Source: a candidate division WWE3 bacterium (GTDB lineage Bacteria; Patescibacteriota; WWE3; JAPLWK01). From it: a DNA stretch of 64,000 nt. A model generated the notes under the pieces. That model was given only the letters and a program-made list of their open reading frames with translations, was not told the origin of the DNA and made no database searches. Of this stretch, positions 6,757 to 53,425 are shown in pieces. Numbering within the stretch: position 1 is the first letter of the stretch; each line of letters starts with the position of its first letter. Position numbers and translations under genes: made by a program. The stretch spans positions 9,096 to 73,095 of the forward strand of contig JAPLWK010000008.1 of NCBI GenBank assembly GCA_026396615.1, given 5' to 3'.

Positions 6757-6847
6757 AAATAAAAATAATAGTCCAACCCCTCCCCCGCTTTGACTATAGG
6801 GCCATATTATGCTATAACCTCCTCACAAATATCAAGGAGAAGAAAAA

Positions 6848-7396
6848 TTGAAAAATATACTAGTCGTTCTTGGCTGCGGAGTGAATCAAGACGGTAACCT
6901 CTCCAGAAGGCCTCGTGCTTCAATGAACGAAGCGCTGTCATTACTTGAAGATGATTACAATTTCCTCTTCCTCACCGGCGGCGGCAGTATCCACGGCACA
7001 GCAGCTTTGGCAATAACTGAAGCTGCGGCTATGAAGAACTACGCCATAAATGAGAGCGTTCATGAGGCGATGATTATCATTGATGAAACGGCGCTAGACA
7101 CTCTTGGTAACTTCCAAGCCCTAAGATTGAAGTTTCCCGGCAGTGATTACAACTTCACTGTCGTAGTGAGTAACTCTCAAATGGCTAGGGCTAAGCTAGT
7201 CGCCCACCAAGTGTTTGGTGGTACCAACAATTTCTATTTCGTGGGTGTTTCGGAGAATTACTTGACGGAATGGCAACGGTTAAAACGAAATAGCTACGAG
7301 ACTATCGCTTACCTACTGCAAATATGCCCGTCGCTTTACAAAATTGCGACAGGAATTGTAAAGATCGCGACTCGTCCCTTCCGCAACTACGATTGA
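6848..7396 (+). CDS. DUF218/YdcF-like (ElyC/SanA family) protein
   Basis: VVLGCG...FLFLTGGG pattern typical of DUF218. Confidence 0.45.
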   Translation: MKNILVVLGCGVNQDGNLSRRPRASMNEALSLLEDDYNFLFLTGGGSIHGTAALAITEAAAMKNYAINESVHEAMIIIDETALDTLGNFQALRLKFPGSDYNFTVVVSNSQMARAKLVAHQVFGGTNNFYFVGVSENYLTEWQRLKRNSYETIAYLLQICPSLYKIATGIVKIATRPFRNYD

Positions 7397-7471
7397 CCGC
7401 CAAAGACTCTCCACGTTTCCCGGAAACTACGAGAGTCTTTTTGTTTTATCTATAAAACGTATAATAAAAAC

Positions 7472-8407
7472 ATGCGCATCCTCATTACCGGCGGGGCCGG
7501 CTTCATTGGCTCTCACCTTCAAGATAAATTAATTACACTTGGCCACACTGTCAGCGTGCTTGATAACTTCCGTTCCGGCAAAAAAGAAAATGTAAACCCC
7601 AAAGCCTCGTTACTAGAAGTTGACGTTAGAGATGCGCAAGGCGTTCTTAAAGCCTTTGAAGACTTTAAACCGGCCGTGGTTTTTCACTTGGCGGCCCAAA
7701 ACGAAGTGCCCTACTCCATGAGTCATCCCGAAGAAGATATCAATATCAATATAAACGGCATGTTTAACATTCTGGAAGCTTGTCGCCAGACAGGCGTCAA
7801 AAAGTTGGTGTACTCTAATACCGGCGGCGCTTACTACGGCGAGGTGGCCGAGGACCGCTTGCCTATTACTGAAGACGAACCGGTCGCTCATCCCTCTTCT
7901 TTCTACGGCGTCTCCAAAGCCTGTGCAGAGCAGTACTTAAAGCTTTACGGCACTGTCTATGGCCTTAAGTGGGTTGCTCTTCGCTACGCTAACGTTTATG
8001 GACCGCGCCAGGACGGCAACAAAGAGTCCGGCATCATCGCCGTGTTTACCAACAAAATGCTTAAAGGCGAACGGCCGACTATAAACGGCGACGGTTCTCA
8101 TACTCGCGATTATGTGTATGTTGACGATGTGGTAAAAGCCAACCTTTTAGCCCTATCGTATAACCAAAACGACTACTTTAATATTTCCAATGGCGCCGAA
8201 GTGACAAATCGGGAGGTTTACGACACCCTGGCTAAAATCTTAGACATTAAAGCTGACCCCATTTTTGGACTCGCTCGACCCGGCGACGTCCTCCGTAACG
8301 TGCTTGATAACACCAAGGCCGCCAGACTTCTAAACTGGCAGCCGGAAGTGAGTTTGGAAGAAGGCATCCAAAAAACCATCGCCTACTACAAAGAAAACGA
8401 GTCCTAA
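7472..8407 (+). CDS. NAD-dependent epimerase/dehydratase (UDP-glucose 4-epimerase-like)
   Basis: N-terminal Rossmann motif ITGGAGFIGSHL; catalytic YxxxK (YGVSKACAE). Confidence 0.8.
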   Translation: MRILITGGAGFIGSHLQDKLITLGHTVSVLDNFRSGKKENVNPKASLLEVDVRDAQGVLKAFEDFKPAVVFHLAAQNEVPYSMSHPEEDINININGMFNILEACRQTGVKKLVYSNTGGAYYGEVAEDRLPITEDEPVAHPSSFYGVSKACAEQYLKLYGTVYGLKWVALRYANVYGPRQDGNKESGIIAVFTNKMLKGERPTINGDGSHTRDYVYVDDVVKANLLALSYNQNDYFNISNGAEVTNREVYDTLAKILDIKADPIFGLARPGDVLRNVLDNTKAARLLNWQPEVSLEEGIQKTIAYYKENES

Positions 8408-9554: not shown

Positions 9555-10925
9555 ATGATTTTAGATAAGCGTGTCTCGATCGTTATTCCGTGCCGTAATG
9601 AAGAGGGCAGTATCGCCCGTATTGTGGGCTCCGCTCTAAAGTACGGCGATGAAGTAATCGTCGTTAGTAACTGCTCTACCGATAACACTGTTGCGATCGC
9701 TACAGCGGCCGGAGCCAAGGTTTTAGTGGATGACCGGACTCTGAATGGTATCGGTTATGGGTTTGCTTTAATGACTGGTATCGCCGCTGCGACTGGCGAC
9801 CTGGTTGCCACTATTGACGGTGACGGTAGTTGCCCAGTAGCTCAGGTTCCAGAGGTCATTAAGTACCTGCAAGATAAACGGCTTGATTTCGTTAACTGTA
9901 CCCGCTTTCCGGTTAAGAATCTCTCGGAAATGCCTCTAATCCGGCAAATCGGGGTTCATGTTTTAAACATTGTCCCGGGAATTCTGTTTGGAAAATTATC
10001 AGCGGATATCTTAAGTGGGATGTGGGTTTTTAAGAAAAGCATCACTGGAAGCCTTAATCTCCGTGAAGGGGATTGGAATCTGTCACCGGAAATTAAGATT
10101 AGCGCCATGACTAACCCAGATATTAAGTACGGAGAGTTTCGAATCAATACTAAAGCGCGGATCGCTGGAAATAGTAAGCAAATTATTTGGAAAACTGGTA
10201 TTACGCACTTAATGTATATCGTAAACAGGCGTTGGAAGGAGGTGAACATCGCCACAAGTATCGCTGTGGCAAAAATTATGAACCAAAAAATTACAAGTTC
10301 AAAGGTGGCAAAAGTTGCAGGTTTAGCTATGGGAATCTTAGTTTTGGCCTTTCTCGCCAACAAGAGTGCCTTTGCAGCTGACTACGGTGGTGGTGTCACT
10401 GGGGCGACTGGGGCTGCTATTAACAAGCAAGTTCTAAATTCCGTCAATGGGAATTGGCAGGACAACGTTGCGGCCTCTGATCATACGTTTGTGACCGGAG
10501 ACTTAGTTAAGTACCGGATATTTTACCGAAATAACGGTAATCAGGACCTAACTAGTGTTAGCATTGTTGACCGGCTTCCCACCGGAATGGTTTGGCAGAG
10601 TGGTGACGGTAACTACGAAAAAGGTGACAATACTGTGACCTTTGACGTTGGAACTTTAAAGGCCGACACCGGTTGGAAAGAAGTCGATTACACGGCCGAA
10701 ATGACTCAAGTAATCACTAAAACGTCCTGTGGTGATCTTACCAACATCGCTATTTTCAAGTCTGGAAGTAACGAGTTGGATCGGGATAGCGCTAGCATTA
10801 ACGCTCGTTGCACCGTGACCACCCCGCGCCTTCCTGAGACAGGTCCTGAGGTAACCTTCGCTATGACTGTGATCAGCTTAGCTTTAGGGGCGGTTGGGGT
10901 AAGTCTGAAGAAGAAATCTGCTTAA
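9555..10925 (+). CDS. Family-2 glycosyltransferase (DPM1-like) fused in frame to a secreted DUF11-like LPETG-anchored surface domain
   Basis: N-terminus SIVIPCRNEE...DGDGS (GT2). An internal signal-peptide-like segment MNQKITSSKVAKVAGLAMGILVLAFLANKSAFAAD begins at 10278. C-terminus LPETG plus hydrophobic stretch plus KKKSA. Confidence 0.6.
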   Translation: MILDKRVSIVIPCRNEEGSIARIVGSALKYGDEVIVVSNCSTDNTVAIATAAGAKVLVDDRTLNGIGYGFALMTGIAAATGDLVATIDGDGSCPVAQVPEVIKYLQDKRLDFVNCTRFPVKNLSEMPLIRQIGVHVLNIVPGILFGKLSADILSGMWVFKKSITGSLNLREGDWNLSPEIKISAMTNPDIKYGEFRINTKARIAGNSKQIIWKTGITHLMYIVNRRWKEVNIATSIAVAKIMNQKITSSKVAKVAGLAMGILVLAFLANKSAFAADYGGGVTGATGAAINKQVLNSVNGNWQDNVAASDHTFVTGDLVKYRIFYRNNGNQDLTSVSIVDRLPTGMVWQSGDGNYEKGDNTVTFDVGTLKADTGWKEVDYTAEMTQVITKTSCGDLTNIAIFKSGSNELDRDSASINARCTVTTPRLPETGPEVTFAMTVISLALGAVGVSLKKKSA

Positions 10926-11011
10926 GATTGAGATCATAAGCCAGAACTGAAAGCAGTCGCCAAACGCGGCTGCTTTTTGTTTTTAGGCGTTTTTAGACTA
11001 GAATAAGATAG

Positions 11012-11758
11012 ATGAAAAAAGACTTGCTCTATTTAGCTCTTCTTAGCATAACGTGCCTCCTAGGACTCGGAGTGGTGCTTAAAAGCCCCTATATCGTCCC
11101 TAAGATCTCTGTTGGACCTTTCTTTGCGGCCTCCTTCCCCTACGACATTTCGCTGTACACGACCGGAATTAAACCGGCTTACTATAAAATTTCACCGTAT
11201 GACGACTTTGTGCTCTTTAAAACTGGAGGGACAGTTCTCCGAAAAGTCATTTCCGGCCCCACCGACATTCGAAATGAGGAATTTATTAAGCAGTCATCCG
11301 GTCTTTACCGGACTTGGGAATTAGTTTCCTCAAAACTCGGGCTCCCCCTTCCAATTATTTATCAGAAATCGCTTGGGGACTACCAGGTTAATTATCGTCT
11401 AGTTCTAAATAGCTCGCTAGAAGAAATTACTATTCACAAAGTTATTAGCGGTTTTTCGGAGCCGGTGTACGGCTTTGGAAATACGTTAATATTTAATAAA
11501 GATGATCGAATTTCTGTGGGAGCTAATTTACAGAATCTTTCTGATATTTCAGCTAGCGCTTCGGGAAAAATGATTCTCTCTAGCCCTGGCTACATTATGA
11601 TTAAGAACCCTCGGGAGCGAGGTTCTATAGGAATACCCGTTTCGCCATTTGATAAAGTAACAATCGACTTTGATTATAAACTACTCGAGGTTACTAGAGC
11701 CTTTCCTGAGCCTCAAAAGGGTGTAGACATTACCTGGGATTTAGATATTTATGATTAA
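11012..11758 (+). CDS. Hypothetical membrane-anchored/secreted protein
   Basis: N-terminal hydrophobic segment; no recognisable domain. Confidence 0.4.
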   Translation: MKKDLLYLALLSITCLLGLGVVLKSPYIVPKISVGPFFAASFPYDISLYTTGIKPAYYKISPYDDFVLFKTGGTVLRKVISGPTDIRNEEFIKQSSGLYRTWELVSSKLGLPLPIIYQKSLGDYQVNYRLVLNSSLEEITIHKVISGFSEPVYGFGNTLIFNKDDRISVGANLQNLSDISASASGKMILSSPGYIMIKNPRERGSIGIPVSPFDKVTIDFDYKLLEVTRAFPEPQKGVDITWDLDIYD

Positions 11759-20128: not shown

Positions 20129-20449
20129 ATAATGTACCAACCACGCCATAATCATCACATGACCCCCAAAATAAGTGACAACCATCATGCGGGAAATTAA
20201 TTCGACCACTCTCTCGGAAATAGGTCAAACTATGACAGCTACCTTTTGGATAATTTTATAAAAAATAGCAAAATTAATTAAGCGTAATTCCCTACCCATG
20301 TTTTCAATTTCCAACGAATTCCGGAGGGACTATGACACGGCCTATAGCATGTTTGGGATTTATTAGGAGCAGGTCGTTAATCCTGTGGTACAAATGCACA
20401 CGTCGCAAATCCACCAATTCCCGCAAAGCCAAGTTTTCCACATTTCCAC

Positions 20450-20529
20450 GTCATTCCGGGACAAGACCTGGAATCCAGTAAATCTGATTTATCAATTACT
20501 GGATTCCAGATCGCGGCGTCTGGAATGAC
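20450..20529. mobile_element. Minimal MITE: two inverted hairpin repeats flanking a 17-bp core
   Basis: GTCATTCCGGGACAAGACCTGGAATCCAGTAAATCTGATTTATCAATTACTGGATTCCAGATCGCGGCGTCTGGAATGAC. Confidence 0.75.
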
Positions 20530-20786
20530 AAGTTAGATGACCTACCTTCCCTACTTCGTAGCTATGGAGGAAATTAAAGAACCGCACCATTCTCAGGGGC
20601 ATACGCCCTAAGTGCAGTGCGGAATAAAAGCATCCTGGACAGAGGACACTATTGATATTAATAGTATAAGAACCACCGCCGCCGTCAAGAGGATTTTTAG
20701 TGGTTAGGGCATAGGTTTATGAAGGATAACTAAAATAATAAACAGTGGGGCTGTGGAAATGCTGAGAGATAGATTACTTTAAATAT

Positions 20787-20947
20787 GTCATTCCGGGACA
20801 AGACCTGGAATCCAGTAAATCTAAAAAGGCCAATTTCCAACAATTTGCCTAGAATTGGTAGCGAGCAAGGTGAACGTTCTTTCCAAATTGGATATTGGAA
20901 ATTTTACATCTTGTTTTACTAGATTCCGGCTACGGGGCCGGAATGAC
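20787..20947. mobile_element. MITE-like element (161 bp) with terminal hairpin repeats
   Basis: Left repeat GTCATTCCGGGACAAGACCTGGAATCCAGTAAATC, right repeat TTACTAGATTCCGGCTACGGGGCCGGAATGAC. The core contains AATTGGTAGCGAGCAAGGTGAACGTT, related to the 4285..4570 core. Confidence 0.7.
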
Positions 20948-22545: not shown

Positions 22546-22610
22546 TTTCTCTCCTCCTTTTTCGAATTCGAACGATTAATGCGCTGATTATGCCACCTTT
22601 TATCCAATTT

Positions 22611-22757
22611 GTCATTCCGGGACAAGACCTGGAATCCAGTAATAAATTCGATTTTAAATTTTGAAAATTAATCATTAATAATTGATTAAAAATTAAAAAT
22701 TAAAAATTTATTTAAATTAATTTGATTTACTGGATTCTGAATCAAGTTCAGAATGAC
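22611..22757. mobile_element. MITE-like element (147 bp) with terminal hairpin repeats and a very AT-rich core
   Basis: Left repeat GTCATTCCGGGACAAGACCTGGAATCCAGTAA, right repeat TTTACTGGATTCTGAATCAAGTTCAGAATGAC. The core resembles the AT-rich segment at 53330-53425. Confidence 0.8.
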
Positions 22758-24835: not shown

Positions 24836-25321
24836 ACCAACATTCGAAATAATTCGTATTAATTCGAATCAATTCGCATGATTCATATAAAGTCTTAAAG
24901 GTGGAAAGAACTATATGCCTTACGGGCATTACTCGGCAGTTTAAGCTGACTGCAAAACTGGTCGATCTAGCTGCGTGAGCAAATCTAGATTAAATTCACT
25001 TAAGCGCAACGACTAATACTCTTAAGTGCGAATCTCGGCTAAGGATTGAGCCTATATTCTAGCTAGTCCGTAATCAAAATGATCGCGCGACTTCTCAATC
25101 GTCTCGAAATTCTAAATACTCCCTAGAAAGGAGGTGATCCAGCCCCAGATTCCCCTAGGGCTACCTTGTTACGACTTAAGCCTGATCGCTAGACATAACC
25201 TCCCCCGATAAATCGGGGTTCAGATATCCCTAACTTTCCTGCCTTGACGGGCGGAACCGGGTACTTAGAAGTTTGTCCCGTCCCCACTCCGGCGAGCGGA
25301 TTTCCCGCACCGGGCGAGTCC

Positions 25322-25735
25322 CTATGCTTTTAATGATCTAACTTCTTGTAGTCCTTCGTTGGTTAAGTGCTTTTTGTTTTTAATTAATTCTGCGACTTGG
25401 CAGAACTTCTTAAACTCAAAACGCTTCTTTGCTTGTGGTGGGTAACTTTGAAAATATGGAATTATTTTCTCAGAAATATCCTTAAAATTACTTACTTTTA
25501 ACTTTACGTGCGGTCGCCATTTAGCGTAACGCTCATAATTTAAACGGTAAATATTTCCACAACCAAGAGATTGTTTTATTTCCTGTAAAATCGGTTCGTC
25601 ATCTTCCCGCAGTTCAATCTCAAATATGAGACGAACTTCCGGAAATCTGTCTTTATGATTATTAACAGAAATACTAAAACAACCTTCTCCATCAACGAAT
25701 CCAACTACATAGTTTGGATCTAACATAAGGTTCAT
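25322..25735 (-). CDS. LAGLIDADG homing endonuclease (single-motif type) encoded in 16S intron 1
   Basis: Motif VVGFVDGEGCFSISV near the N-terminus; 137 aa; located inside the insertion near E. coli position 1397. Confidence 0.8.
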   Translation of the reverse strand: MNLMLDPNYVVGFVDGEGCFSISVNNHKDRFPEVRLIFEIELREDDEPILQEIKQSLGCGNIYRLNYERYAKWRPHVKLKVSNFKDISEKIIPYFQSYPPQAKKRFEFKKFCQVAELIKNKKHLTNEGLQEVRSLKA

Positions 25736-26730
25736 CCCTTCATCTCCAGACTACCAAATAAAATACGAAGTAGCAAGAGATTACTATGGACTCAGCTGAC
25801 TTCTCGTAAAGCAATTGCTTCAATCTTTACGAGATCTCTCTGGGTCATTTAGAAAACTGTTCCAGGCATCCGAACGAGAGTCACTTCCTCATGACACACC
25901 ATGAGTCGATTTGACTATCCCTGTCAACGGGATTTCGGCTGCCTTTTGCCTCAGGCCCTCCAGACCAGCGCCTCGCGGCTCTGGACCTGCCATGTTATTT
26001 TCTTGACTACCACATTCAGTTTTCATGAACGTGGGATGGATTTTAACCATCTAGTTTTCTAAACTGCCAGACGCGCAATTAAATTTTTGTGTGCAAGACC
26101 CGAGAACGTATTCACCGCAGTATAGCTGACCTGCGATTACTAGCAACTCCAGCTTCATGAGGGCGAGTTGCAGCCCTCAATCCGAACTAAGGTCCACTTT
26201 TGTGGGATTTGCTCCACCTTACGATTTCGCTTCCCTTTGTAGTGGCCATTGTGGCATGTTTCTAGCCCCAGGCATAAGGGCAATACCGACTTGACGTCAT
26301 CCCCGCCTTCCTCCCTCTTGCGAGGGCAGTTCCACTAGAGTGATACAACTAGTAGTAGGGGTTGCGCTCGTTGACCCACTGAAGGGTACGTCTCACGATA
26401 CGAGCTGACGACAGCCATGCAACACCTGTGATAGCCTTCTTGCGAATTTCCCGCGTTTCTGCGGAATAGGACGCTATCATGTCAAACCTGGGTAAGGTTC
26501 TTCGGTTATCATCGAATTAAAGAACATGCTTCGCTGCTTGTGCGGGTCCCCGCCAATTCCTTTGAGTTTTAAGCTTGCGCTCGTACTTCCCAGGCGGTCG
26601 ACTTAACGCGTTAGCTTCGACGAACAATCCACCTTGCGGCGGGCCATCCATCCAGTCGACATAGTTTACGGCGTGGACTACACGGGTCATCGTGTATTTT
26701 AGCTCCTATTACTAGGAGGATCGGACTATA

Positions 26731-27474
26731 TCATTCACTGAAATGTTTGTGACGACTTTGCTTATCTTTAAGATAAAATCGCACCACTTCTTCCGAAAAA
26801 CCGGAAGACGTAATCACTTCAGAGATCCAGCGTTGCTGAAGAATTGAATCTTTGTATAGAAGCAATACTTTAGGCAACATTTGAGGAACTGGTACATAAG
26901 GAATTATGAGCCTTAAGAATTTTTTTAGTTCTTCTACAGAACTTAAATAAACTCTGCTATAGACCTTATTAACCAACGGGCGATGGACAAATCCAACGCT
27001 CGTGTTAATACCCCAAACGATTTTAAAATATCTTTTAATAATTTCGGCTTCTTTTAAGGAATAGCCATCTGTACAAAAAACCCCTTTGCGTTCCCCAATG
27101 ATAGAACCATCATCAAACCACCAGATTGCCAGAGCAAGTGGGGTTAATTTGTTCAACCATCTTCGGGAAACAAGCTTTTTTTGCCTTTTTGTAACCAAGT
27201 TATAATAACCGGTTAAAACTGGCAAAGCTAAGCTTTGATAACGCAACTTAGGATTCTTACTGTAACCATCAGCTGGTTGCTCCCAACAACAAGAGTCGCT
27301 TGATATTTCCTTAAGTTTAGACATTTTCCACCAAAAATATTCTTTCTGGTTTATTGAATGCCTAAAGGATAATCTCGCGTTTTTGTAATTAGGATTTACA
27401 GCTATTGAGGCATCTCCTAAAAGAGAACCTAAAACCACTGCTTCACATTCTTTTGACAAAGGTGTTAGCTTCAT
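26731..27474 (-). CDS. LAGLIDADG homing endonuclease (double-motif type) encoded in 16S intron 2
   Basis: Motifs VVLGSLLGDASIAV and LAIWWFDDGS; inside the insertion at the 785-806 region. Confidence 0.8.
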   Translation of the reverse strand: MKLTPLSKECEAVVLGSLLGDASIAVNPNYKNARLSFRHSINQKEYFWWKMSKLKEISSDSCCWEQPADGYSKNPKLRYQSLALPVLTGYYNLVTKRQKKLVSRRWLNKLTPLALAIWWFDDGSIIGERKGVFCTDGYSLKEAEIIKRYFKIVWGINTSVGFVHRPLVNKVYSRVYLSSVEELKKFLRLIIPYVPVPQMLPKVLLLYKDSILQQRWISEVITSSGFSEEVVRFYLKDKQSRHKHFSE

Positions 27475-28486
27475 TAAGCTATTTTACACCAACTGTCGTC
27501 AATTCTTCATAGTCTCTACGGGAGTCGCCTTAGGCGACCTTCCCTCGGGATTGACCTAAAATAAATTTAGGGTTTCCCCGATACAGCTGAATGCTCATCT
27601 CGATATCGCTATCGAGAGGGACACCATTCCCCCGATAAAATCGGGGACGGACTATCTAATCCGTTTTGCTCCCCACGCTTTCGTATCTCAGCGTCAGAAA
27701 ATTCCCAGGTAGCTGCCTACGCCTTTGGTGTTCCAAGTGCTCTCAACGCATTTCACTGCTACTGCACTTGTTCCGCTACCCCCTAAATATCTCTAGTCTA
27801 GAAGTATCACAAGCAGTTCCAAGGTTGAGCCTTGGGATTTCACCTGTGACTATCTAAACCGCCTACATAACTCTTTACGCCCAATAAATCCGGATAATGC
27901 TTGGATCCTACGTATGACCGCTGCTGCTGGCACGTAGTTAGCCGATCCTTCTTAACGTCGGTTTACGACCCGAAGGCCTTCATCCCGCACGCGGCGTCGC
28001 TGGGTCAGACTTTCGTCCATTGCCCAAAATTCCCGATTGCTGCCATCCGTAGATGTGGGGGCCGTGTCGCAGTCCCCCTCTGGCTGGTCATCCTCGTGAG
28101 ACCAGCTACCCGTCATAGACTTGGTGGGCCTTTACCCCGCCAACTATCTGATAGGCCGCAGGCTCATCCTAAAGCGGCTTGCGCCTTTACTCTTAACTTT
28201 TTACAGTCAGAGACTATTGGGTATTACCTAATCTTTCGACTAGCTATTCCCATCTTTAGGGTAGATTCCTACGTGTTACTCAGCCGTCTGCCGCTACTTA
28301 AACCCTTGCGGGTCTAAATCGCTCGACTTGCATACCTTAGGCACGCCGCCAGCATTTATCCTGAACCAGGATCAAATTCTCAAAAAAAATTCTTTCCACC
28401 TTTAAAACTTTACTTTATCAATGTGATGTCACTTCAATCACGATTTAGTGACACCTATTTGGTTATCAAGGTGCATACCCTTACTT

Positions 28487-28520
28487 GTCATTCCGGGCTT
28501 GACCCGGAATCCAGTAAACC
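28487..28520. repeat. Solo hairpin repeat copy within the 16S upstream/leader region
   Basis: GTCATTCCGGGCTTGACCCGGAATCCAGTAAACC. Confidence 0.85.
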
Positions 28521-28767
28521 AACAGTCCGAAACATCCTAATTAATCCGAAATGGTATCCGAATTAATCCTAATATCGGACGGGTCTTAAAAACAAATAAA
28601 CCCCAGGTCTGCCCTGCGGTTTTTATGTTTAGCTGTAGTAGTATCCCAAAGGACTTACTAAAAGCGTTTGGTAGAGTTACTTTTAACTTATGCAGGGAGG
28701 TTTGTCAACGGCCAAAAGAGGTGCTAAAGTAGCGCTCATCTGAATACTCAGAAAGAGGAGACAAGAA

Positions 28768-36844: not shown

Positions 36845-36876
36845 GTCATTCCGGGCTTGACCCGGAATCCAGCAGC
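36845..36876. repeat. Solo hairpin repeat, followed by an AT-rich segment related to the MITE cores (to about 37020)
   Basis: GTCATTCCGGGCTTGACCCGGAATCCAGCAG, then CGCTACCAATTCTTATAGAATTGTTAAATTTTTAAGCATTTCAAATTGAATTCAAATTGTAAATTTCAAATTG, which matches 4340-4420. Confidence 0.8.
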
Positions 36877-37022
36877 TCTAATAATTTGAAATTTAAAATC
36901 AAAGTTTAAATTTGAAAAATCGACGCTCATTTTGTTCGCTACCAATTCTTATAGAATTGTTAAATTTTTAAGCATTTCAAATTGAATTCAAATTGTAAAT
37001 TTCAAATTGAAAATTAAGATTA

Positions 37023-37968: not shown

Positions 37969-38076
37969 GTCATTCCGGGCTTGACCCGGAATCCAGTCAA
38001 CCCGATTGTTATTTGCTTTTTGTTATTTGTTATTTTGATCGATGTTACTGGATTCCGGCTCCGGGGCCGGAATGAC
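37969..38076. mobile_element. MITE-like element (108 bp) with inverted hairpin repeats
   Basis: GTCATTCCGGGCTTGACCCGGAATCCAGTCAAC ... GTTACTGGATTCCGGCTCCGGGGCCGGAATGAC. Confidence 0.75.
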
Positions 38077-40777: not shown

Positions 40778-40836
40778 GTCATTCCAGGCTTGACCCGGAA
40801 TCCAGTTACTGGATTCTGAATCAAGTTCAGAATGAC
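40778..40836. mobile_element. Minimal element made only of two abutting inverted hairpin repeats (REPIN-like)
   Basis: GTCATTCCAGGCTTGACCCGGAATCCAGTTACTGGATTCTGAATCAAGTTCAGAATGAC. Confidence 0.8.
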
Positions 40837-41528: not shown

Positions 41529-42431
41529 ATGCCCAAAAAAGTTGTGAGAGCAAAAACGAAAATTAAAACAAAAGTTACTAATAAAAAAGCAACTGGCAAG
41601 TATTTTTTTGACCACAAGGCTCCCGATCTTCCCTTCTGGAGTTTCCTGGCCGTCTGCGCCATGGTTTTAGTGGTTTTAGCCGGTACGTTTGCCGTCAGCA
41701 AAAGAACAACGCAGCCTTCACCTATTTTACCTATCATACCTATTCAACATATAAAACCTATCCAAACCACCACCACAATTACCTCCGCCACCGATGCCAC
41801 CCCCATAATAGTAAATAACAAACTCGATATAATTTATAAAAATAGCGTTGGCGGCTACTCGCTGAATAGTTATGACCTAAACCTCAACGTTCTTGACGAG
41901 AACCGCTGGCTGACCAACGGCCAGGTAATTCCCAACCAACAAGCTGCTAAACCGTATTTTTACAATAGCACCTGGTATCTGGCATATATAGGTGGCGATC
42001 GATATTTAAGACTGGGAACCTACGACGAATTATTTAATCGCCAACGCGAAGTAACATTCGTGACCCCGATTCCCGTTAGCAGTAATTACCAGATTTATCT
42101 AACAGCTAACGCAAACGGAACGACGACGCAAGTCGCCACCGCAACCTTCAAACACATTTATACCACCAATAATACGTTAGGCATTTCCGGTGACCGTGCT
42201 CCCGGTGAGCGAATTGCCCGGCGGCGAAACGTGTTTCTCGGAGAGCGTTCCGCTCGGTTACGGGACCTTCAATCTGCTGAAGCATGCCGGGTTTCTCCAG
42301 ATGCCGGGCGGGGCTCCGCTGGAGACGGAGGCGGCCTCCAGCATCGAGCTTCGTGCGCCGCCGAGGTACTCGGTCCTCAGCGCCGTGGTGAGTGGGTCCA
42401 CCACGTTCCGGGAAAGCCTCGTCAGGCGTGA
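41529..42431 (+). CDS. Hypothetical membrane-anchored protein whose 3' end runs into an anomalous GC-rich segment
   Basis: Lys-rich N-terminus plus transmembrane segment. From about 42186 the translation (DRAPGERIARRRNVFLGERSARLRD...) looks like out-of-frame reading of foreign DNA. Confidence 0.4.
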   Translation: MPKKVVRAKTKIKTKVTNKKATGKYFFDHKAPDLPFWSFLAVCAMVLVVLAGTFAVSKRTTQPSPILPIIPIQHIKPIQTTTTITSATDATPIIVNNKLDIIYKNSVGGYSLNSYDLNLNVLDENRWLTNGQVIPNQQAAKPYFYNSTWYLAYIGGDRYLRLGTYDELFNRQREVTFVTPIPVSSNYQIYLTANANGTTTQVATATFKHIYTTNNTLGISGDRAPGERIARRRNVFLGERSARLRDLQSAEACRVSPDAGRGSAGDGGGLQHRASCAAEVLGPQRRGEWVHHVPGKPRQA

Positions 42432-42445
42432 CGCACAAAACCACC
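42186..42445. other. GC-rich segment of about 260 bp (about 65% GC) embedded in AT-rich context
   Basis: Composition shifts sharply. One frame gives the protein-like VSELPGGETCFSESVPLGYGTFNLLKHAGFLQMPGGAPLETEAASSIELRAPP. Confidence 0.6.
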
Positions 42446-42486
42446 CGTTGACAAATGATTTAAATATTTTAAGGTTGTAGTACCTC

Positions 42487-43635
42487 ATGACAGATTTAAC
42501 TCGCGCCCAAGAAAATTCCGATCAAGTTGAGCCCCCCAGTTTAAAGCCTAACCTGCGATTTGTTGGTATTACCTATTCCAAAGCCGACCGCAAATATTTT
42601 CACACCGAAGAAGAATTTATTTCCGAGGACGAAGTTTACGAACGAGCCACGGTGATCGCTAAATATTTAGAAAAACGCGGCATCGTGGTTAAACTTTACG
42701 CCGGCGATGAAACGATTGTCGCTGAATTACTCCGCGACCGGCCGAATCTGGTTATTAATTTAGTCGACACGATTCGCGGTGAGGAAACTTTAGAACCCTG
42801 CATTCCGGCCGCTTTGGAACTGGCCCAAATCCCTTATACCGGCAGCGGTATTTTGGGGCTTTCGATCGGTTCTAATAAATATTTAACTAAGAAACTGCTA
42901 GACATCGCTCACGTGCCTACTCCCAAATATCAATTTGTGGTTTCGCCAAATGACGTTATTGACCCTGAATTTAAGTACCCGCTGATTTCCAAGCTTAATC
43001 AGACCCACGGCTCTGTGGGAATGACCGCCGATGCCGTCTCCGCTAACGAAGCTGAACTGCGAAAGCGTTTACGAAGTTTAATTGGGACGTACAAACAACC
43101 GGTGTTAATTGAAGAATTTGTGGGGACGCGAGAAGTGTCCGTGATTTTACTGGACGGTTTGCGTAAGAAAGTTTACTGCGGCGAAAAAGTTTTTGACGCC
43201 GAATATCTTAAAGGATCCAAATACACTTTTTGCACTTTCGACGGCACTTGGCTTGACGAAAAATCCTGGACTTATAAAAAATACGACGACCCTAAATTAA
43301 ACGAAGCGGTGCGGGCCGCCTTTGATATTTTAAAAATGGACGATTACGCTAAATTCGATATTCGTTTAAATGACGACGGCAGTTTTTACTTTATTGACTG
43401 CAACCCCAACTCCACTTTTGGCCCCAAGGAGATGGGCATCGCCCTGGGCAGTATTTTGGATCTTTACGGCATTAATTTCGACGAGATTCTAGACAGACTT
43501 CTCGCTAACAGCGTTCAGGATATTTTAGAAGAAAAGAAAGAGGAAGCCGAGTTGTTCGCGAAGAATTTAGAAAAAGCGGAGTCCAAAGTGACTTCCCTAA
43601 TGGTTGTTCCCACTGATACGTCATTCCGGGCTTGA
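42487..43635 (+). CDS. ATP-grasp enzyme, D-alanine--D-alanine ligase-like (second paralog)
   Basis: ATP-grasp C-terminal motifs (FDIRLNDDGSFYFIDCNPNS). The stop TGA is supplied by the loop (CTTGA) of the hairpin repeat. Confidence 0.65.
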   Translation: MTDLTRAQENSDQVEPPSLKPNLRFVGITYSKADRKYFHTEEEFISEDEVYERATVIAKYLEKRGIVVKLYAGDETIVAELLRDRPNLVINLVDTIRGEETLEPCIPAALELAQIPYTGSGILGLSIGSNKYLTKKLLDIAHVPTPKYQFVVSPNDVIDPEFKYPLISKLNQTHGSVGMTADAVSANEAELRKRLRSLIGTYKQPVLIEEFVGTREVSVILLDGLRKKVYCGEKVFDAEYLKGSKYTFCTFDGTWLDEKSWTYKKYDDPKLNEAVRAAFDILKMDDYAKFDIRLNDDGSFYFIDCNPNSTFGPKEMGIALGSILDLYGINFDEILDRLLANSVQDILEEKKEEAELFAKNLEKAESKVTSLMVVPTDTSFRA

Positions 43636-43761
43636 CCCGCCTGCCCACCTTTAGCAGGGAATCCAGCCATCCCACTTGTCATTCCGGCCTTGAGCCGGAA
43701 TCCAGTAACAGATTAAACGATTGAATCGATTTACTGGATTCTGAATCAAGTTCAGAATGAC
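43620..43761. mobile_element. Composite MITE: two left-type hairpin repeats plus one right-type repeat
   Basis: GTCATTCCGGGCTTGACCCG[CCTGCCCACCTTTAGCAGGG]AATCCAG...GTCATTCCGGCCTTGAGCCGGAATCCAGTAA...TTTACTGGATTCTGAATCAAGTTCAGAATGAC. Confidence 0.8.
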
Positions 43762-44778: not shown

Positions 44779-44853
44779 TGGTGGCAAGAGTGGGATTTGA
44801 ACCCACGACCGACGGCTTATGAGTCCGTTGCTCTACCACTGAGCTATCTTGCC
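44779..44853 (-). tRNA. tRNA with anticodon CAU (elongator Met or Ile2; G1:C72, so not an initiator), CCA encoded
   Basis: Reverse complement GGCAAGATAGCTCAGTGGTAGAGCAACGGACTCATAAGCCGTCGGTCGTGGGTTCAAATCCCACTCTTGCCACCA. Confidence 0.85.
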
Positions 44854-44992
44854 ACGTGCCTCGTCATTATAACAAACAAAAAACTCGCATCAGCGAGTTG
44901 GTTGCGGATCCAGGTAACGCTCCTGGTTAAGCGGGATTATGAGCCCCGCGAGATGTCTTCACCTCCCACCCGCTCGCTCATTATAATTTAAA

Positions 44993-45352
44993 TCACTGAA
45001 ATATCAAGGCTACCCACTGCTTCCACACCGGCAAATCAACTTTCACCGTCGACTCTCCTAAGGCTGACCCAACAATCGCGAGCTCCTCCGGAATAATCAC
45101 TAGCTTTTCACCAGGCTTAATCATTTGCAAATTATCGCGGGCCTGTTTTTCGATATGCCAGGGAGTCTGAGCTTCCGCTAGATCTTTGGTCAAAGCTATC
45201 TTTTTGTCACGCAAATTCTGAACCTCTTTAACCAAATTCGTATACCTAGCTTCTTTGACCCGCAGATCTAACAGCGTCTTACCTATATTAACGAGAGCGA
45301 CAACGCCAATCACCACCACCGCCCCATTTCTTAATAAGATTAATTTAGACAT
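44993..45352 (-). CDS. Septum formation initiator (FtsB/DivIC-like)
   Basis: Single N-terminal transmembrane segment followed by a coiled-coil (LVKEVQNLRDKKIALTKDLAEAQ). Confidence 0.55.
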   Translation of the reverse strand: MSKLILLRNGAVVVIGVVALVNIGKTLLDLRVKEARYTNLVKEVQNLRDKKIALTKDLAEAQTPWHIEKQARDNLQMIKPGEKLVIIPEELAIVGSALGESTVKVDLPVWKQWVALIFQ

Positions 45353-45611
45353 AATAGTTAGTTAGTGTATAATAAACTAGTCGAGCTGATCCGGACCCTC
45401 GCCGTAAAAGCGGAGAGTGTGGCCGAATAATCTCGACACTTTTATTTTATATACAACCCAAAAGATCTACTACCTCTCTTTCTGTAATTTTACGAACAGT
45501 TGCATGCTTATGATAACGATGTAGCTGCCACTTTGATCAACTTCAACGGTCACTTTGCTCATGACTACTCTATCATAGAGTATAATTGGAAAAAATAAAT
45601 TGGAGGAGAAG

Positions 45612-46013: not shown

Positions 46014-46259
46014 ATGGTACGAAGCGAGATATCAGAAGAGGTCGTCGAAGTTACTGCAGTCGACGATACTAAGATGGTGGATTTTTGTGAGGGAATTTGG
46101 GAAACTGCTTTCCCTACTCCACCTGCAGAAGCCCAAACTCATAATATCGAGGAATTGGCCCAGCGTGTTCATGACGGATTTAACCCCGTTGATGCGGCTC
46201 TTGACATTGCGTTCCCGGCCACCGACACCCTTTACGACGACTCTGAACACCTGTTCTAA
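46014..46259 (+). CDS. Small acidic hypothetical protein (81 aa)
   Basis: RBS TAGGAGAA before the ATG. Confidence 0.4.
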   Translation: MVRSEISEEVVEVTAVDDTKMVDFCEGIWETAFPTPPAEAQTHNIEELAQRVHDGFNPVDAALDIAFPATDTLYDDSEHLF

Positions 46260-46363
46260 GAACGTAAAGGCGCAAGGCTCATAAAATCTATATAGAATTT
46301 TATGGGCCTCTAACTAAAGACTTTCGGACCGCGCTGGAAGGTTTTAGTTAGCAACCAAAACTA

Positions 46364-46394
46364 GTCATTCCGGGCTTGACCCGGAATCCAGTAA
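46364..46394. repeat. Solo hairpin repeat copy
   Basis: GTCATTCCGGGCTTGACCCGGAATCCAGTAA. Confidence 0.85.
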
Positions 46395-46426
46395 AAAATA
46401 AAACAGACGCAACCGGTTTCAACTAC

Positions 46427-46455
46427 TTGACAATCCACACTATAGGTGTTATAAT
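46427..46455 (+). promoter_or_regulatory. Perfect sigma70 promoter P2 (TTGACA-17-TATAAT) driving a leader of about 210 nt before 46672
   Basis: TTGACAATCCACACTATAGGTGTTATAAT. Confidence 0.6.
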
Positions 46456-46671
46456 GTTAGCATGAAAACTGAATAGCTTTCTCCGGTAGGGCCATTCTAT
46501 CGGTAAGTTGGAGAGAGACGAAATTTGTTTTCCTCTATCTGTCCCCTATTTGGGCGCAGGATGAGCAAAATAAATTACAAATCGCCAAAACTAGACTTTG
46601 GATAGCTTCGTCCAAGGAAATAAAACTAGTTACGGCAAATAGATGGGCCAACCGCCCGAAAGGAAATACAA

Positions 46672-47307
46672 ATGAGTACGCAAGAAAATTACGCAAAGAA
46701 GAACGCCCGCGTGTTGTCGGCTCTTCAATCAGGCCAACCATATTGGTTGCTGAAGGCAGAGCAGGAGTACTACTCCCTAGTGCAGGTCGGTCCAGACCGA
46801 TTGCCGATTCCGATTCTCAAGCAGTTACTTGGGAATGAGCACGGTGATCTGATTACGCTGATCGGCCGGGAACCGGAGCTGACTTTCGACCGCGACATGC
46901 GAGTCGCTAATCAGAATGGTTTGCTCCGAGAGATAGTAGGCATCATGCTGGCCAGTATCGAGGCAGACCCTAGTCACAAAGGTGAATGGGAAGTCACGTA
47001 TAATGGTCTCAAGGGCCGGATTACGACAGAGTTCAGCAATCGGCCGGAATATTCGAGCAACGGTGGGGAGTACTTCTTCTACCGCAAGTTCCGAATTACT
47101 GTCGCTGGCGTGACGTCATTCGATGACTGGTCCTGCGACTTCTCGGATTATCAAAATCCAGGGCAGTTGCTTTACCGCATCGACCTGACAAGTCTGCAGC
47201 CAATTTTCGATCACGCCGAATTGATTGCGAAAGCAGTCATCGCCGGCGAGTGGAATTCTGTTTGCTCAGTGTGCGGTCACGTCTACACCCACACTCAGGA
47301 GGCCTAA
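46672..47307 (+). CDS. Hypothetical protein (211 aa), first gene of a GC-rich two-gene module
   Basis: RBS AAAGGAAA; about 52% GC against about 43% in the flanks; C-terminal CSVCGH; translationally coupled to the next gene. Confidence 0.5.
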   Translation: MSTQENYAKKNARVLSALQSGQPYWLLKAEQEYYSLVQVGPDRLPIPILKQLLGNEHGDLITLIGREPELTFDRDMRVANQNGLLREIVGIMLASIEADPSHKGEWEVTYNGLKGRITTEFSNRPEYSSNGGEYFFYRKFRITVAGVTSFDDWSCDFSDYQNPGQLLYRIDLTSLQPIFDHAELIAKAVIAGEWNSVCSVCGHVYTHTQEA

Positions 47308-47309
47308 CG

Positions 47310-47632
47310 TGTCTACTATAATTCGCGTTGAGACACTGCTCGAGCCGGTCACCAAGAACGGTGTTGCTTATCAGGAACACGGTTGTCCTGAAAAGCCCGA
47401 AGGTTATGAAGATACTGACATCGTCGCCAAGGTTGGTGACTACGGTGATATCTACATGGCTATACCTATTGAGGTGATTCGGGAGTGGACAAAGTACTGG
47501 GAGGGCCAAGGTTACAAATTCGTCTTCCTTGGTTATTCCGGCGGTTTAGTCTGGTGGGGACAACTCAAGGATTTCGAGGAGTTACTAACCAGATTTAAGG
47601 TCGTCGGACAGTACGGTATTAATTTCTGCTAA
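47310..47632 (+). CDS. Hypothetical protein (107 aa), second gene of the GC-rich module
   Basis: GTG start 1 nt after the upstream stop, preceded by AGGAGG; high GC. Confidence 0.45.
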
Positions 47633-47785
47633 CACGAAGGCCTAAGGTAAGAATGGAATAAAATCCCTCTTCATACCTTAGGCCCGAACTTGAGAAGTTT
47701 AAGCAACTAGACTTTTGAAGTTTGGTTACAAACCTAACGCACGATTCCATGTACTGTCAAAATCTGTCAGTTCGGGTAATCGTGT

Positions 47786-48544
47786 TTAAAGTAACTTAAT
47801 TATTTTATTAACCAAATCCAATTCTACCTTCCGGTAATTTTCCGGCAGAAACTTGTCTAGATCCAAAAGAAGCGACTTTTCCGAAAAATTGGCCAGACGT
47901 TTTTGCAATTCTTCTTTAGAAATTGTTTCGTGGTAGTAGACTAACTTCCTTTCGACAAATTTCCAATCAATTGCTTCACCTCTTCCCAGTAAATACCACA
48001 AATCAAACAAATCCCGACCGCGACTACGATGCATAATAGCCCTAATTTTCTCAGCTACAATTTCCCTGGCACTCAAGTGTTTTATAATTGGAAGAGGTGA
48101 AACCGGCAAAGTTGTCGTGAGAACGCTGGTTTGCGGCTCTAAAGCGTTTTCCCGAGTTGAGAAATCTAATTTAAGAAAAAGTTGGGATGCCGAAAGTGGT
48201 AGATTAGAAAAAGTTAATCGAAAAGAAAAGTTTGGTTTTATAGTTTCTATTAATGCTAATTTTCCGGTGATATTTTCATCTACACAAAGCTTGCGAAGCG
48301 CCTCTGTAGCCAACTTCTGGATAACTTCTTGACTACCTCCGGTTGTAAAATCCAAATCTTCGGAGAATCTAAACGACCCAAAAACTAACTTGATGGCCGT
48401 CCCGCCTTTAAAAAAAGTGGTTTCACAATTCGGCTGCTCATAAAAATTCTTTAGGAAGACCACTTGAAGATACTCACGAAGTAGTGAATACTCGTCGATC
48501 TTTTTGGCCGCGGCCAATTGTTTTACTTCCAAGGCGGTAAGCAT
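47786..48544 (-). CDS. abiEii: AbiEii/DUF1814 nucleotidyltransferase toxin (type IV toxin-antitoxin / abortive infection)
   Basis: Family NTase motif FKGGTAIKLVFGSFRFSEDLDF. Confidence 0.75.
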   Translation of the reverse strand: MLTALEVKQLAAAKKIDEYSLLREYLQVVFLKNFYEQPNCETTFFKGGTAIKLVFGSFRFSEDLDFTTGGSQEVIQKLATEALRKLCVDENITGKLALIETIKPNFSFRLTFSNLPLSASQLFLKLDFSTRENALEPQTSVLTTTLPVSPLPIIKHLSAREIVAEKIRAIMHRSRGRDLFDLWYLLGRGEAIDWKFVERKLVYYHETISKEELQKRLANFSEKSLLLDLDKFLPENYRKVELDLVNKIIKLL

Positions 48545-49137
48545 AATTTCGGAAAGGCTTTGGCGTACTCACGGAGTTTAGCCAAATCAACGTGAGTTAG
48601 GTCAAGGTCTTTGTGATTAAGGTTGGTAAGGCCACGAGATTCAAAATACAGAGTATCCAAAAGAGCCTTCTCAGGCATGGCTATTAGAAACTCACCGGTT
48701 TTTTGGTAACCGAAGAAGAGTTTCTGTCCCAAATGAGAATATTTAATAATTTGGTTATCATAAGCAGTTTCGCGGCTTTTCTTGATAGTCGCCACTGTTA
48801 TAACTTGCGGATTTTGTGACAGTATTCCATAATAATTTAAAGCGGATTCGAAGGAAATGTAGCTGGGAGAAACTACAGCCGTTGCTACCGCGAATTTTTC
48901 AGGAGCTTTAAAACTGTTGGCGTAGAGGCCTTTGCGAATCGGCAGTAACCACCGATTCTTAACAAACCGATGTATTGCGGTGTTTTTAGAGTTAGCTGAC
49001 TTAAACCCTAAAGCGTTTTGCAAATCCTGACTCCCCAAAATGCTTTTAGTGGTACTTTGCAGAAATGAGATAAGTTGTTTGTTATAGATGGGTTCCATAT
49101 TATGTACAATAATGTACATTATCTGGGATCCTGTCAA
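48523..49137 (-). CDS. abiEi: AbiEi-family antitoxin/transcriptional regulator
   Basis: Lies upstream of AbiEii and overlaps it by 22 bp; size and winged-helix N-terminus fit AbiEi. Confidence 0.6.
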   Translation of the reverse strand: MTGSQIMYIIVHNMEPIYNKQLISFLQSTTKSILGSQDLQNALGFKSANSKNTAIHRFVKNRWLLPIRKGLYANSFKAPEKFAVATAVVSPSYISFESALNYYGILSQNPQVITVATIKKSRETAYDNQIIKYSHLGQKLFFGYQKTGEFLIAMPEKALLDTLYFESRGLTNLNHKDLDLTHVDLAKLREYAKAFPKLCLPPWK

Positions 49138-49299: not shown

Positions 49300-49408
49300 A
49301 AATTCAATCGCTGCGAGCGCAGCGAGAAGTTACACGACTGGTCGGAGTTTTCAGTCCAGCTAAGTGCACCACTTAACAGTCACTAAAATAAATGTTAAAT
49401 TTAAGGTA

Positions 49409-51319
49409 ATGAAAAACGAAAATAAAAGAGATGACGAAGTCACCAGTATTACCCCGGAAACGATCAGGGAAGAACTCCCTAGTCATATCGAAGCCACGGT
49501 TAAGGCTGCTAAAGATCCTCAAGGTCAGGAAAAAGGCTTTGGTTTTGTAATAATTCCGGAAGGAAGTTTAACTGAGCATCCGGAAGTCTTAGGCGGCGCC
49601 AGAGTCGATGGGGCTACCCTAAGAAGTTGGGAAAGAAAGGGAGTGTTCGTCCATGCCTCGGCCATTTCGGGCCATTATCAACGGGAACCGCTTGAAGGTC
49701 TTGTAATTGTTCCCCAGAAAATTGGAATCAACCCTAGAAATGGAATGTATGCCGTTACTGAAGCTCAAACGGCTGAAGCATACAAAAGAGACGCTCAAGC
49801 CACCAGGATCCAAGCGCTCGCGGAACAACAGAAAAAGCAGGCTGAAGCCGCCAGAGAAAAGGCGGAGACCGAAAGGTCCCAGCAAATATTTGACCAACTA
49901 GTAGCAAAAGGACATCACTTAGATTCGGAATCACTTTGGGGAATCGCCAAAAGTTACGCTAGGTTTTATTACGCCAATGATGGTCGCTACCAGCAAGGAG
50001 ATTTACAGGAACAGTTAGCCCAAGCTGAAATCTCCGCGACCACAGCCGTCAAGAGGCAAAAATATGAAGAGGCTTTACCAGGAATCAGAGCCTGGGCTCA
50101 AGAGGAGGCCACTAAATGCGGCGGGGTGGTTGAAGAAGTTGACTGGCCTAAAGAAATTCGAATAGTGCTTAAAGAGGAACCCAAGGAGTATCAACAAGCC
50201 TCAGCGGCCTACGGGCGAGCCGCGGAAGTTGATAAATGGTTAGCCCAACAAAAATTGGTGCCGGTTCTCCCTAAGACCGATGACAACACTAACTACGCTG
50301 GCCGGTTTACCGGGGGTAGGGTGACTGTACACTCATGGTACAGCCCCGGAGATATGTACAGTAACCGCGGCGGCTCTTCTAGCGTTTCTTACGAAGTTGT
50401 CCCGCCTACCGATCAACCGGTAGCGGAAGTGGTAATTTGGAATCGACGTCTTGACGGAGTGACCGTCGATCGGTTAGCTGAATCTGCAGACCTTCGCGCT
50501 AATTTTCCACAAATTCTTAACAAATGGACGGAAGCCGCAGAGCTTGCCGAAGCCTACCAAAGGACTATCGAGTTAAAAGAAGCACAGGAGGCCGAAGCCA
50601 AGAAGCAAGCCGCTGAATATATAGAGTGGTTAACTAATAAAGTCTATCCGCCGATTGCCGATAAGGTGGATGTCACTCAAGAAAAAGAATGGCTCGGCCT
50701 GCCCGTGATTACGAAGTCTTGGTACGACCATTCAGATGTAACCATTAGATCAGTGCTGGTTAGATCCTGCGAGGTTGATATTCCCGGATTTGGCGCTTTG
50801 GATCTAATTCGCCATGGTTACTGGCCCGATGATGTCCGGCCTGCGGCGGCGTATCTTAAGGAGCAGTGGGATAGGCAGCAGCCGGAAGAGGCGGTGGTTG
50901 CAAACGAAACTAAAGACGAAGCTCTCACCAGATTAATAGGATTTGCTTTCAAGGAGGAGAATTTACCAACCATCCCTGGAATGGACTGGAAAATTAGCGG
51001 AGCTCTCCATCAAGCCCAAGCCTTTGCCGATGCTCAAAAAGAAACTTTAGCTCCGGCAATTCCAAAAGTTCCAGGAGAATGGGACCAAAAACACGAGCAG
51101 TACTATACTCACGATTTGGTGTTATCAGGTCGCGGATTACCGGATACAGTCATTTCCTCAATCTACTTTAGAGCCGGTCGACGTGGTAATGGGTACTTGG
51201 CCGAAGTCGAAGGCTCACCAAATTACCGAGTGGACGATTTATTTAAGGCGCATCCTGAGCTTGACCCCCGTCAAATCAGAGCCACCTGGAAAGTCGTGGA
51301 ACCACCCAAAACCTCTTGA
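49409..51319 (+). CDS. Large hypothetical protein (636 aa) with an N-terminal cold-shock (OB-fold) domain
   Basis: CSD-like KGFGFVIIPEG...GVFVHASAI, then an Ala/Gln/Glu-rich coiled-coil segment and a C-terminal region of unknown fold; about 50% GC. Confidence 0.5.
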   Translation: MKNENKRDDEVTSITPETIREELPSHIEATVKAAKDPQGQEKGFGFVIIPEGSLTEHPEVLGGARVDGATLRSWERKGVFVHASAISGHYQREPLEGLVIVPQKIGINPRNGMYAVTEAQTAEAYKRDAQATRIQALAEQQKKQAEAAREKAETERSQQIFDQLVAKGHHLDSESLWGIAKSYARFYYANDGRYQQGDLQEQLAQAEISATTAVKRQKYEEALPGIRAWAQEEATKCGGVVEEVDWPKEIRIVLKEEPKEYQQASAAYGRAAEVDKWLAQQKLVPVLPKTDDNTNYAGRFTGGRVTVHSWYSPGDMYSNRGGSSSVSYEVVPPTDQPVAEVVIWNRRLDGVTVDRLAESADLRANFPQILNKWTEAAELAEAYQRTIELKEAQEAEAKKQAAEYIEWLTNKVYPPIADKVDVTQEKEWLGLPVITKSWYDHSDVTIRSVLVRSCEVDIPGFGALDLIRHGYWPDDVRPAAAYLKEQWDRQQPEEAVVANETKDEALTRLIGFAFKEENLPTIPGMDWKISGALHQAQAFADAQKETLAPAIPKVPGEWDQKHEQYYTHDLVLSGRGLPDTVISSIYFRAGRRGNGYLAEVEGSPNYRVDDLFKAHPELDPRQIRATWKVVEPPKTS

Positions 51320-53291: not shown

Positions 53292-53425
53292 GTCATTCCG
53301 GGCTTGACCCGGAATCCAGTAACGGATTAAAATTTTTAATTTAAAATTTTTAATCAAACATTAATTTTTAATGAATTAATTCATTAATTATTGATTGAAA
53401 ATTAAAAATTGGTAATTAAAAAATT
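53292..53425. repeat. Half MITE: left hairpin repeat plus AT-rich core, no right repeat; it abuts the start codon of the exonuclease gene
   Basis: GTCATTCCGGGCTTGACCCGGAATCCAGTAAC followed by ATTAATTATTGATTGAAAATTAAAAATT, similar to the 22650-22730 core. Confidence 0.7.

Follow-up and report, generated by a model that had tools for sequence, protein, structure and literature searches.

Operators at the ribosome-binding site are known from phage T4, where they serve gp43 and RegA, and from the coat-protein hairpin of phage MS2. Here we describe a locus with a comparable arrangement, consisting of two adjacent genes (gene 1 and gene 2, listed at NCBI as the hypothetical proteins NT141_01830 and NT141_01835) in a 64-kb stretch of a WWE3 metagenome-assembled genome (contig JAPLWK010000008.1; the whole stretch of 64,000 nucleotides is referred to as the window). 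As in the phage operators, a short predicted stem-loop, contained in a 23-nt element, abuts the Shine-Dalgarno sequence of gene 1, is conserved together with the gene and leaves the ribosome-binding site single-stranded; unlike in these, the binder is only putative, the stem shows no covariation, and no relation of the gene 1 protein to the phage regulators was detected.

Toxin-antitoxin (TA) systems are the other close comparison. With type II operons the locus shares two small coupled genes, a strong promoter and a position in an accessory region beside AbiE, but the two genes do not form a conserved pair, searches for toxin, antitoxin or DNA-binding domains in them were negative, and gene 1 usually occurs solo. 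With type III systems (ToxIN) it shares a predicted structured non-coding RNA region directly 5' of a protein gene under one promoter, yet it has neither tandem repeats nor a terminator between RNA and gene, nor a ToxN/AbiQ-like domain. AbiE, a type IV TA system, adjoins the two genes in convergent orientation; neither gene 1 nor gene 2 resembles the AbiE proteins, however, and their homologues elsewhere have no AbiE neighbours.

An element at the ribosome-binding site of gene 1

The 23-nt element (Table 1) ends 7 nt before the ATG of gene 1, and across lineages its end lies 6-11 nt before the start codon. The pattern GATGGGNNNACCGCCCGAAAGGA was identical at 20 of 20 specified bases in the window and in four further loci (L001, L022, L024 and L025), the proteins of which are 43-49% identical to gene 1. 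It outlives the remaining leader, as the other parts of the L022, L024 and L025 leaders could not be aligned, and variants were found upstream of more distant homologues (L026, L027 and L031). The loop has 4-6 nt and often ends in ACC, and in L025 a C-G pair is changed to U-G. A covariance model (R1) trained on six sequences found loci that had not been used for training, L027 at an expectation value (E) of 0.008 and L031/L032 at E = 0.11, exactly at the start sites of the homologues, and gave one strong match in the whole window. Judged by its conservation beside the Shine-Dalgarno sequence, together with the gene and across divergent homologues, the element is functionally constrained.

Its Shine-Dalgarno part, GAAAGGA, is complementary to the 3' tail CCUCCUUUCU of the organism's own 16S rRNA (...CACCUCCUUUCU). 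As this part is unpaired in the predicted folds, a binding site for a factor would fit better than a switch that sequesters itself, and the variable loop length together with the G-U pairs would favour a hairpin in RNA over an operator in double-stranded DNA. An upstream reading frame in the element (MGxPPER...) was considered and rejected; it meets a stop at codon 3 in L022, continues in L024 and L025, where no stop is conserved, and is not preceded by its own Shine-Dalgarno sequence. The 16S gene in the window (25124-28387, minus strand) is seemingly interrupted by one or more large insertions: the Rfam 16S match stops at 26035, the canonical 3' end (GTAACAAGGTAGCC...GGATCACCTCCTTTCT) was located at about 25124-25170, and a match to a group II intron domain (25735-25822) lies between the 16S parts.

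The reading that we favour, if tentatively, is that gene 1 is an accessory gene derived from a mobile element or phage and that an operator at the ribosome-binding site would gate its translation, with gene 2 as a coupled add-on. Transcripts from the promoter P2 would start near 46462, the 5-bp stem-loop abutting the Shine-Dalgarno sequence would act as translational operator for a trans-acting factor, and translation of gene 2 would be coupled to that of gene 1 over the gap of 1 nt. As the element accompanies the gene in contexts that are otherwise unrelated, the product of gene 1 would be the simplest candidate for the binder; the result would be autoregulation, whatever its direction and whatever biochemical activity the protein may have.

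Several observations weigh against this reading. A count over the invariant stem yielded 0 compensatory pairs and a single wobble change, so that the hairpin is neither proven nor contradicted by covariation, and the element could act as plain sequence instead; the short hairpin is also thermodynamically unexceptional. The gene 1 protein is acidic (isoelectric point, pI, 5.1), as few RNA-binding proteins are, and no nucleic-acid-binding fold was detected in it. Finally, the distal hairpins of the leader and the 3' flank were seen in two lineages only, where recent recombination could explain their conservation.

The gene 1 family and its surroundings

Gene 1 is the conserved unit of the locus. 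Its product is a member of a family of small, acidic alpha/beta proteins that is rare and uncharacterised. A word-indexed search with gene 1 returned the query only; of 1.84 billion cluster representatives, an exhaustive HMMER search matched 35 at E <= 1e-3. The initial annotation, made from the letters of the window, had recognised no family in either protein and had suggested an acquisition of the genes. Genes 1 and 2 gave no match in Pfam, NCBIfam, PHROGs or PADLOC, with no PADLOC family at E <= 1 for either of them or for the small upstream gene 0, and the two genes are accessory rather than housekeeping, being very rare and sporadic, with some relatives on phage-like contigs. Searches of both proteins by tblastn against 50,697 phage genomes returned nothing. 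The gene 1 family and a leader pattern were likewise not found by scans of IMG/VR and of GTDB genomes, nor the 23-nt element by a scan of IMG/VR. None of the libraries searched contains the protein family, its predicted fold or the leader element.

The family has a strongly conserved core, ITTxFSRDPxxSxNGGxYxxYRxY...GVxAxxDWSCD, and a C-terminal CxxCGHxYTH; the C-terminal CxxC is present in about 11 of 19 aligned members, and the shorter members consist of the C-terminal domain alone. For structure prediction with AlphaFold an alignment was used, as the run from the single sequence was unusable at a predicted local distance difference test score (pLDDT) of 40. The alignment-based model of gene 1 is confident (pLDDT 88.9, predicted template modelling score 0.77) and shows an N-terminal alpha/beta domain, followed by a helix, five strands and a helix, with a C-terminal zinc-knuckle-like tail of lower confidence. 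Fold searches with this model gave no significant match. A comparison of the gene 1 profile with the PDB yielded the zinc-finger region of USP34 as a weak sole match (E = 6e-4), which was judged a coincidence of the CxxC region, and Cys155 was rejected as a zinc ligand acting with the C-terminal CxxC, as members of the family show no co-variation between them.

Among 5.8 billion proteins, gene 2 has just one relative apart from identical sequences, P0003, which is 75% identical and encoded on the 2-kb contig L001. It gave no sequence match in the PDB and none by tblastn in phage genomes, and a tblastn search of 33 loci found it only in the population of the window (L002, L003) and in L001. A comparison of the two proteins ruled out that gene 2 is a diverged paralogue of gene 1; it would be a lineage-specific add-on. 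Against L001, third codon positions are the most variable in both genes, and the ratio of nonsynonymous to synonymous substitution rates (dN/dS) is 0.27 for gene 1 (0.552/2.06) and 0.13 for gene 2 (0.134/1.04); both are therefore genuine coding sequences under purifying selection.

Homologues of gene 1 without gene 2 were found in L004, L012, L013, L022, L024-L028, L031 and L034. At least eight other lineages have gene 1 either solo or next to unrelated genes, and AbiE adjoins it in none of them. It is alone in L012, L013, L022 and L026, and in L022 it follows a tRNA, with DprA/UvrB-type genes on one side and an ABC (ATP-binding cassette) transporter on the other; in L024, L025, L027, L028/L034 and L031 it lies beside unrelated, unannotated genes. 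The neighbour in L004 is a divergent paralogue of gene 1 (10001-10648 and 10923-11657; hhalign 93%), and L034 holds two paralogues (4584-5192 and 6954-7586) with one gene between them. The large neighbours in L034, of 518 and 552 amino acids (aa), are mutually unrelated, so that a conserved partner gene was rejected for this locus. Usually, the gene appears to occur by itself with a TTGACA-type promoter of its own.

Phage-like contexts were seen in L014 (phrog_10048 at 3e-44), L025 (Gp3-like, MUG113, RHH_3) and L015 (MUG113/T5orf172), and chromosomal contexts of the candidate phyla radiation (CPR) type in L027 (AlaRS/RuvX) and L013, where neighbouring open reading frames (ORFs) resemble RNase HII, peptide deformylase and formyltransferase by eye. 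Genes of a defence type occur near the family only in L004/L005 (ResIII/RE_endonuc and SLFN_AlbA_2), 7-9 kb off. With phage-like and ordinary chromosomal contexts mixed in this way, the family is accessory and not tied to defence islands, and it probably moves with mobile elements. In four lineages, very acidic small ORFs (pI 4.05-4.4), which are mutually unrelated, lie directly beside a member of the family (Table 1).

Layout of the operon and the surrounding DNA

Genes 1 and 2 form a real bicistronic operon, with the consensus sigma-70 promoter P2 as its probable promoter. The initial annotation had listed this perfect promoter, gene 1 with its C-terminal CxxC, a tightly following 107-aa gene with a GTG start, and a GC content of about 52% for both. 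The promoter and gene 1 were confirmed throughout. For gene 2 the length, the GTG 1 nt past the stop of gene 1, the Shine-Dalgarno sequence of its own (AGGAGG at 47298-47303) and the end at 47632 were correct, and the start had to be moved from 47310 to 47309. The GC value applies to gene 1 (0.522) and not to gene 2 (0.472); the pair has 0.506, compared to a window mean of 0.444 (standard deviation 0.033), and 2.7% of equal-sized segments reach the GC of the pair. The shift is real but modest, and mostly due to gene 1.

Perfect TTGACA-N17-TATAAT sites occur four times in the window (9519, 16074 on the minus strand, 46427 and 51316), with 0.05 expected. P2 is probably a functional promoter, neither unique nor exceptional in an organism that uses canonical promoters; the site at 51316 lies directly 5' of FtsH. 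P2 and the promoter of gene 0, P1, are contained in a near-duplicate of 32 nt (repeat D1, 84% identity), and P2 appears to be a local duplicate of P1. It lies, together with a copy of a genome-wide palindromic repeat, in a block of about 166 nt (46355-46520) that is missing from L001. As this block is found in the genome of the window only, genes 1 and 2 seem to have gained a duplicate promoter of their own here. In L001, the order is P1 (counterpart at 89-117), a non-homologous acidic gene of 153 aa, two hairpins, the leader, gene 1', gene 2' and the 3' hairpin. Gene 0 itself has no family match in Pfam, NCBIfam, PHROGs or PADLOC.

Table 1. Features of the locus, related loci and repeats; positions refer to the window unless a locus is named, and the last column gives the identity to the L001 counterpart.
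Feature	Position	Strand	Description	Identity to L001
Promoter P1	45897..45925	+	TTGACA-17-TATACT, 11/12, TG-extended; upstream of gene 0	87-91%
Gene 0	46014..46259	+	81 aa, pI 4.05, very acidic	replaced by non-homologous gene
Two stem-loops 3' of gene 0	46275..46351	+	inverted repeats I7, I8	82%, stem bases changed
Palindromic repeat copy GTCATTCCGGGCTTGACCCGGAATCCAGTAA	46364..46394	.	inside block 46355-46520	
Promoter P2	TTGACA 46427-46432, TATAAT 46450-46455	+	17-nt spacer, consensus score 12/12, extended -10 TG	
5' leader	46462..46671	+	about 210 nt; predicted stem-loops 46477-46517, 46522-46576, 46584-46636, 46645-46657	
Leader core	46521-46671			92.7%
23-nt element GATGGGCCAACCGCCCGAAAGGA	46642..46664	+	predicted stem UGGGC/GCCCG, 5-nt loop, Shine-Dalgarno GAAAGGA	
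Gene 1	46672..47307	+	211 aa, pI 5.1 (5.13), C-terminal CSVCGH; stop TAA 47305-47307	54% (nucleotides); third positions 38%
Gene 2	47309..47632	+	107 aa, pI 4.7 (4.69), GTG start 1 nt past gene 1 stop	79%
3' flank	47633..47722	+	stem-loop with 15-nt arms 47639-47684 (I5), folding z = -4.78	95.6%, up to L001 contig end
AbiEii	47786-48544	-	nucleotidyltransferase domain, Pfam PF08843, E = 4e-32	
AbiEi	48523-49137	-	PADLOC, E = 5e-31	
Acidic ORFs beside the gene 1 family	window 46014-46259; L001 285-746; L010 4151-4573; L027 4552-4875, 5646-6011			
Palindromic repeat sites	2611-2646, 4285-4320, 6725-6760, 20445-20481, 20782-20818, 22606-22642, 28487-28522, 36845-36880, 37969-38004, 40778-40813, 43609-43639, 43678-43713, 46364-46399, 53292-53327	both	GTCATTCCGGGCTTGACCCGGAATCCAGTAA and variants; further inverted copies	

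Downstream, AbiEi and AbiEii form a bona fide AbiE pair with an overlap of 22 nt (48523-48544), convergent to the operon and 153 bp from gene 2, in agreement with the initial estimate of about 150 bp; tRNA genes flank the region, a tRNA having also been noted initially: two tRNA-Met lie at 44779-44974, and tRNA-Ile(TAT) lies at 49225. In the sister contig L003, which derives from the same population, 47 nt (2318-2364, corresponding to window position 49189) are inserted just 5' of the tRNA-Ile. Straight after this tRNA, an ORF of 651 aa (49364-51319, plus strand) shows a strong skew of A over T, with nothing significant in Pfam, NCBIfam, PHROG or PADLOC.

The palindromic repeat of about 31 nt occurs intergenically, in both orientations and at least 10 copies across the window, and has the look of a repetitive extragenic palindromic (REP) element. 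A possible small RNA gene at 45346-45452 (plus strand) comprises a promoter-like site (TAGACA-16-TATAAT, 45346-45373), a stem-loop of about 60 nt (45380-45437; z = -3.06) and a T-run, and gave no match in Rfam. A local GC peak of 0.56 at 42000-42600 has overlapping ORFs on both strands and coincides with the 3' end of a 300-aa ORF (41529-42431); Rfam contained no match for it at E <= 1.

Alternative explanations and significance

Much of the non-coding conservation around genes 1 and 2 was seen in the comparison with L001. In this comparison synonymous sites are saturated, the identity is 93-96% for the leader core and the 3' flank, and the remaining non-coding stretches either reach about 82% or cannot be aligned. 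A recent recombination may have swapped divergent alleles between conserved flanks, in which case the identity of 46521-46640 and of the 3' flank would not be functional. The mosaic profile (3' flank 96%, leader 93%, gene 1 54%, gene 0 replaced) and the insertion of the block 46355-46520 in the window only speak for such an event, and we consider it possible, though on balance doubtful, given that the final 23 nt of the leader are conserved far past these two lineages and that the substitutions in the leader spare the predicted pairs. In the consensus fold of the leader core from the window and L001, which consists of three stem-loops, 8 of 8 substitutions are compatible with the structure: one is a compensatory change from GC to AU, two are wobble changes, and the rest fall on unpaired positions. 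Two lineages only enter this comparison, in which the substitutions are suggestive of a structured leader core. The leader as a whole (46462-46671) also folds better than shuffled sequence (z = -2.96). These folding data, with the 93% conservation of the core, are what could be cited for the initial annotation's idea of a riboswitch or small RNA, of which a constrained element inside the leader has remained and a known family has not. A scan with Rfam 15 gave no match for the leader even at E <= 10, and two chance-level matches in 46250-47800 (E = 2.8 and 9). Neither a terminator or attenuator nor a predicted sequestration of the Shine-Dalgarno sequence was found; the two long hairpins are represented by two lineages only and are absent from the L022, L024 and L025 leaders, where the 23-nt element alone is left, and this is too small for known aptamers. 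A preQ1-like pseudoknot was considered and rejected, its loop and tail being too short and an Rfam match missing. Of the alternatives discussed here, a role of the 210-nt leader as a riboswitch that senses a metabolite, or as a small RNA in its own right, is accordingly the least probable.

The initial annotation had further proposed a toxin-antitoxin or anti-phage system, to be recognised by co-occurrence of the two genes and by proximity to defence genes. The 1-nt gap of the bicistron, the strong promoter, the rarity of these accessory genes, the AbiEi/AbiEii pair at 153 bp and the ResIII/RE_endonuc and SLFN_AlbA_2 genes in L004/L005 would all suit a TA or abortive-infection pair in a defence island. 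The pairing is not conserved, however, as gene 2 is confined to the lineage of the window and its close relative L001; homologues of gene 1 lack both gene 2 and an adjoining AbiE in the other lineages, many of them in housekeeping contexts (UvrB/DprA, AlaRS/RuvX, def/fmt-like); and Pfam and PADLOC revealed no toxin, antitoxin, DNA-binding or defence domain. An RNA antitoxin of the ToxIN type is excluded by the lack of tandem repeats in the leader (none in 46300-46671 by Tandem Repeats Finder and a repeat search). We therefore hold a TA pair for improbable, which removes a false lead: adjacency to AbiE and two coupled genes are insufficient to call a defence system. Somewhat better placed, if still unlikely, is the notion that the genes are inhibitors derived from phages or other mobile elements ('moron' or anti-defence genes), small acidic proteins that would bind and thereby block a protein of host or phage, comparable to DNA mimics, immunity proteins or anti-CRISPRs, with the leader as a plain expression signal. 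All three products of the locus are acidic (gene 0 pI 4.05, gene 1 5.13, gene 2 4.69), unrelated very acidic small genes flank the homologues in L001, L010 and L027, phage-like contigs carry members of the family amid small genes on the same strand, and the alleles diverge strongly between conserved flanks. Known inhibitors, on the other hand, show no homology or significant fold match to them, the searches of phage genomes and IMG/VR were empty, dN/dS is well under 1, and several homologues sit in ordinary chromosomal contexts. A bolder form of the operator reading, in which the gene 1 family and the hairpin constitute an undescribed self-regulating RNA-protein module with a new fold in CPR bacteria and phages that takes part in the conflict between phages and hosts (by inhibiting or sensing next to AbiE, for example), appears more unlikely still, ranking between the inhibitors and the TA pair.

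At present the locus is to be seen as an accessory operon that is well delimited yet uncharacterised, and not as a new system that has been demonstrated; CPR genomes commonly hold unknown accessory genes. To our knowledge, almost no regulation has been studied by experiment in CPR/Patescibacteria. If the model of a translational operator before gene 1 is true, an uncatalogued protein family would be paired with an uncatalogued cis-regulatory RNA element, and the locus would offer a small, testable case of post-transcriptional control in these bacteria.

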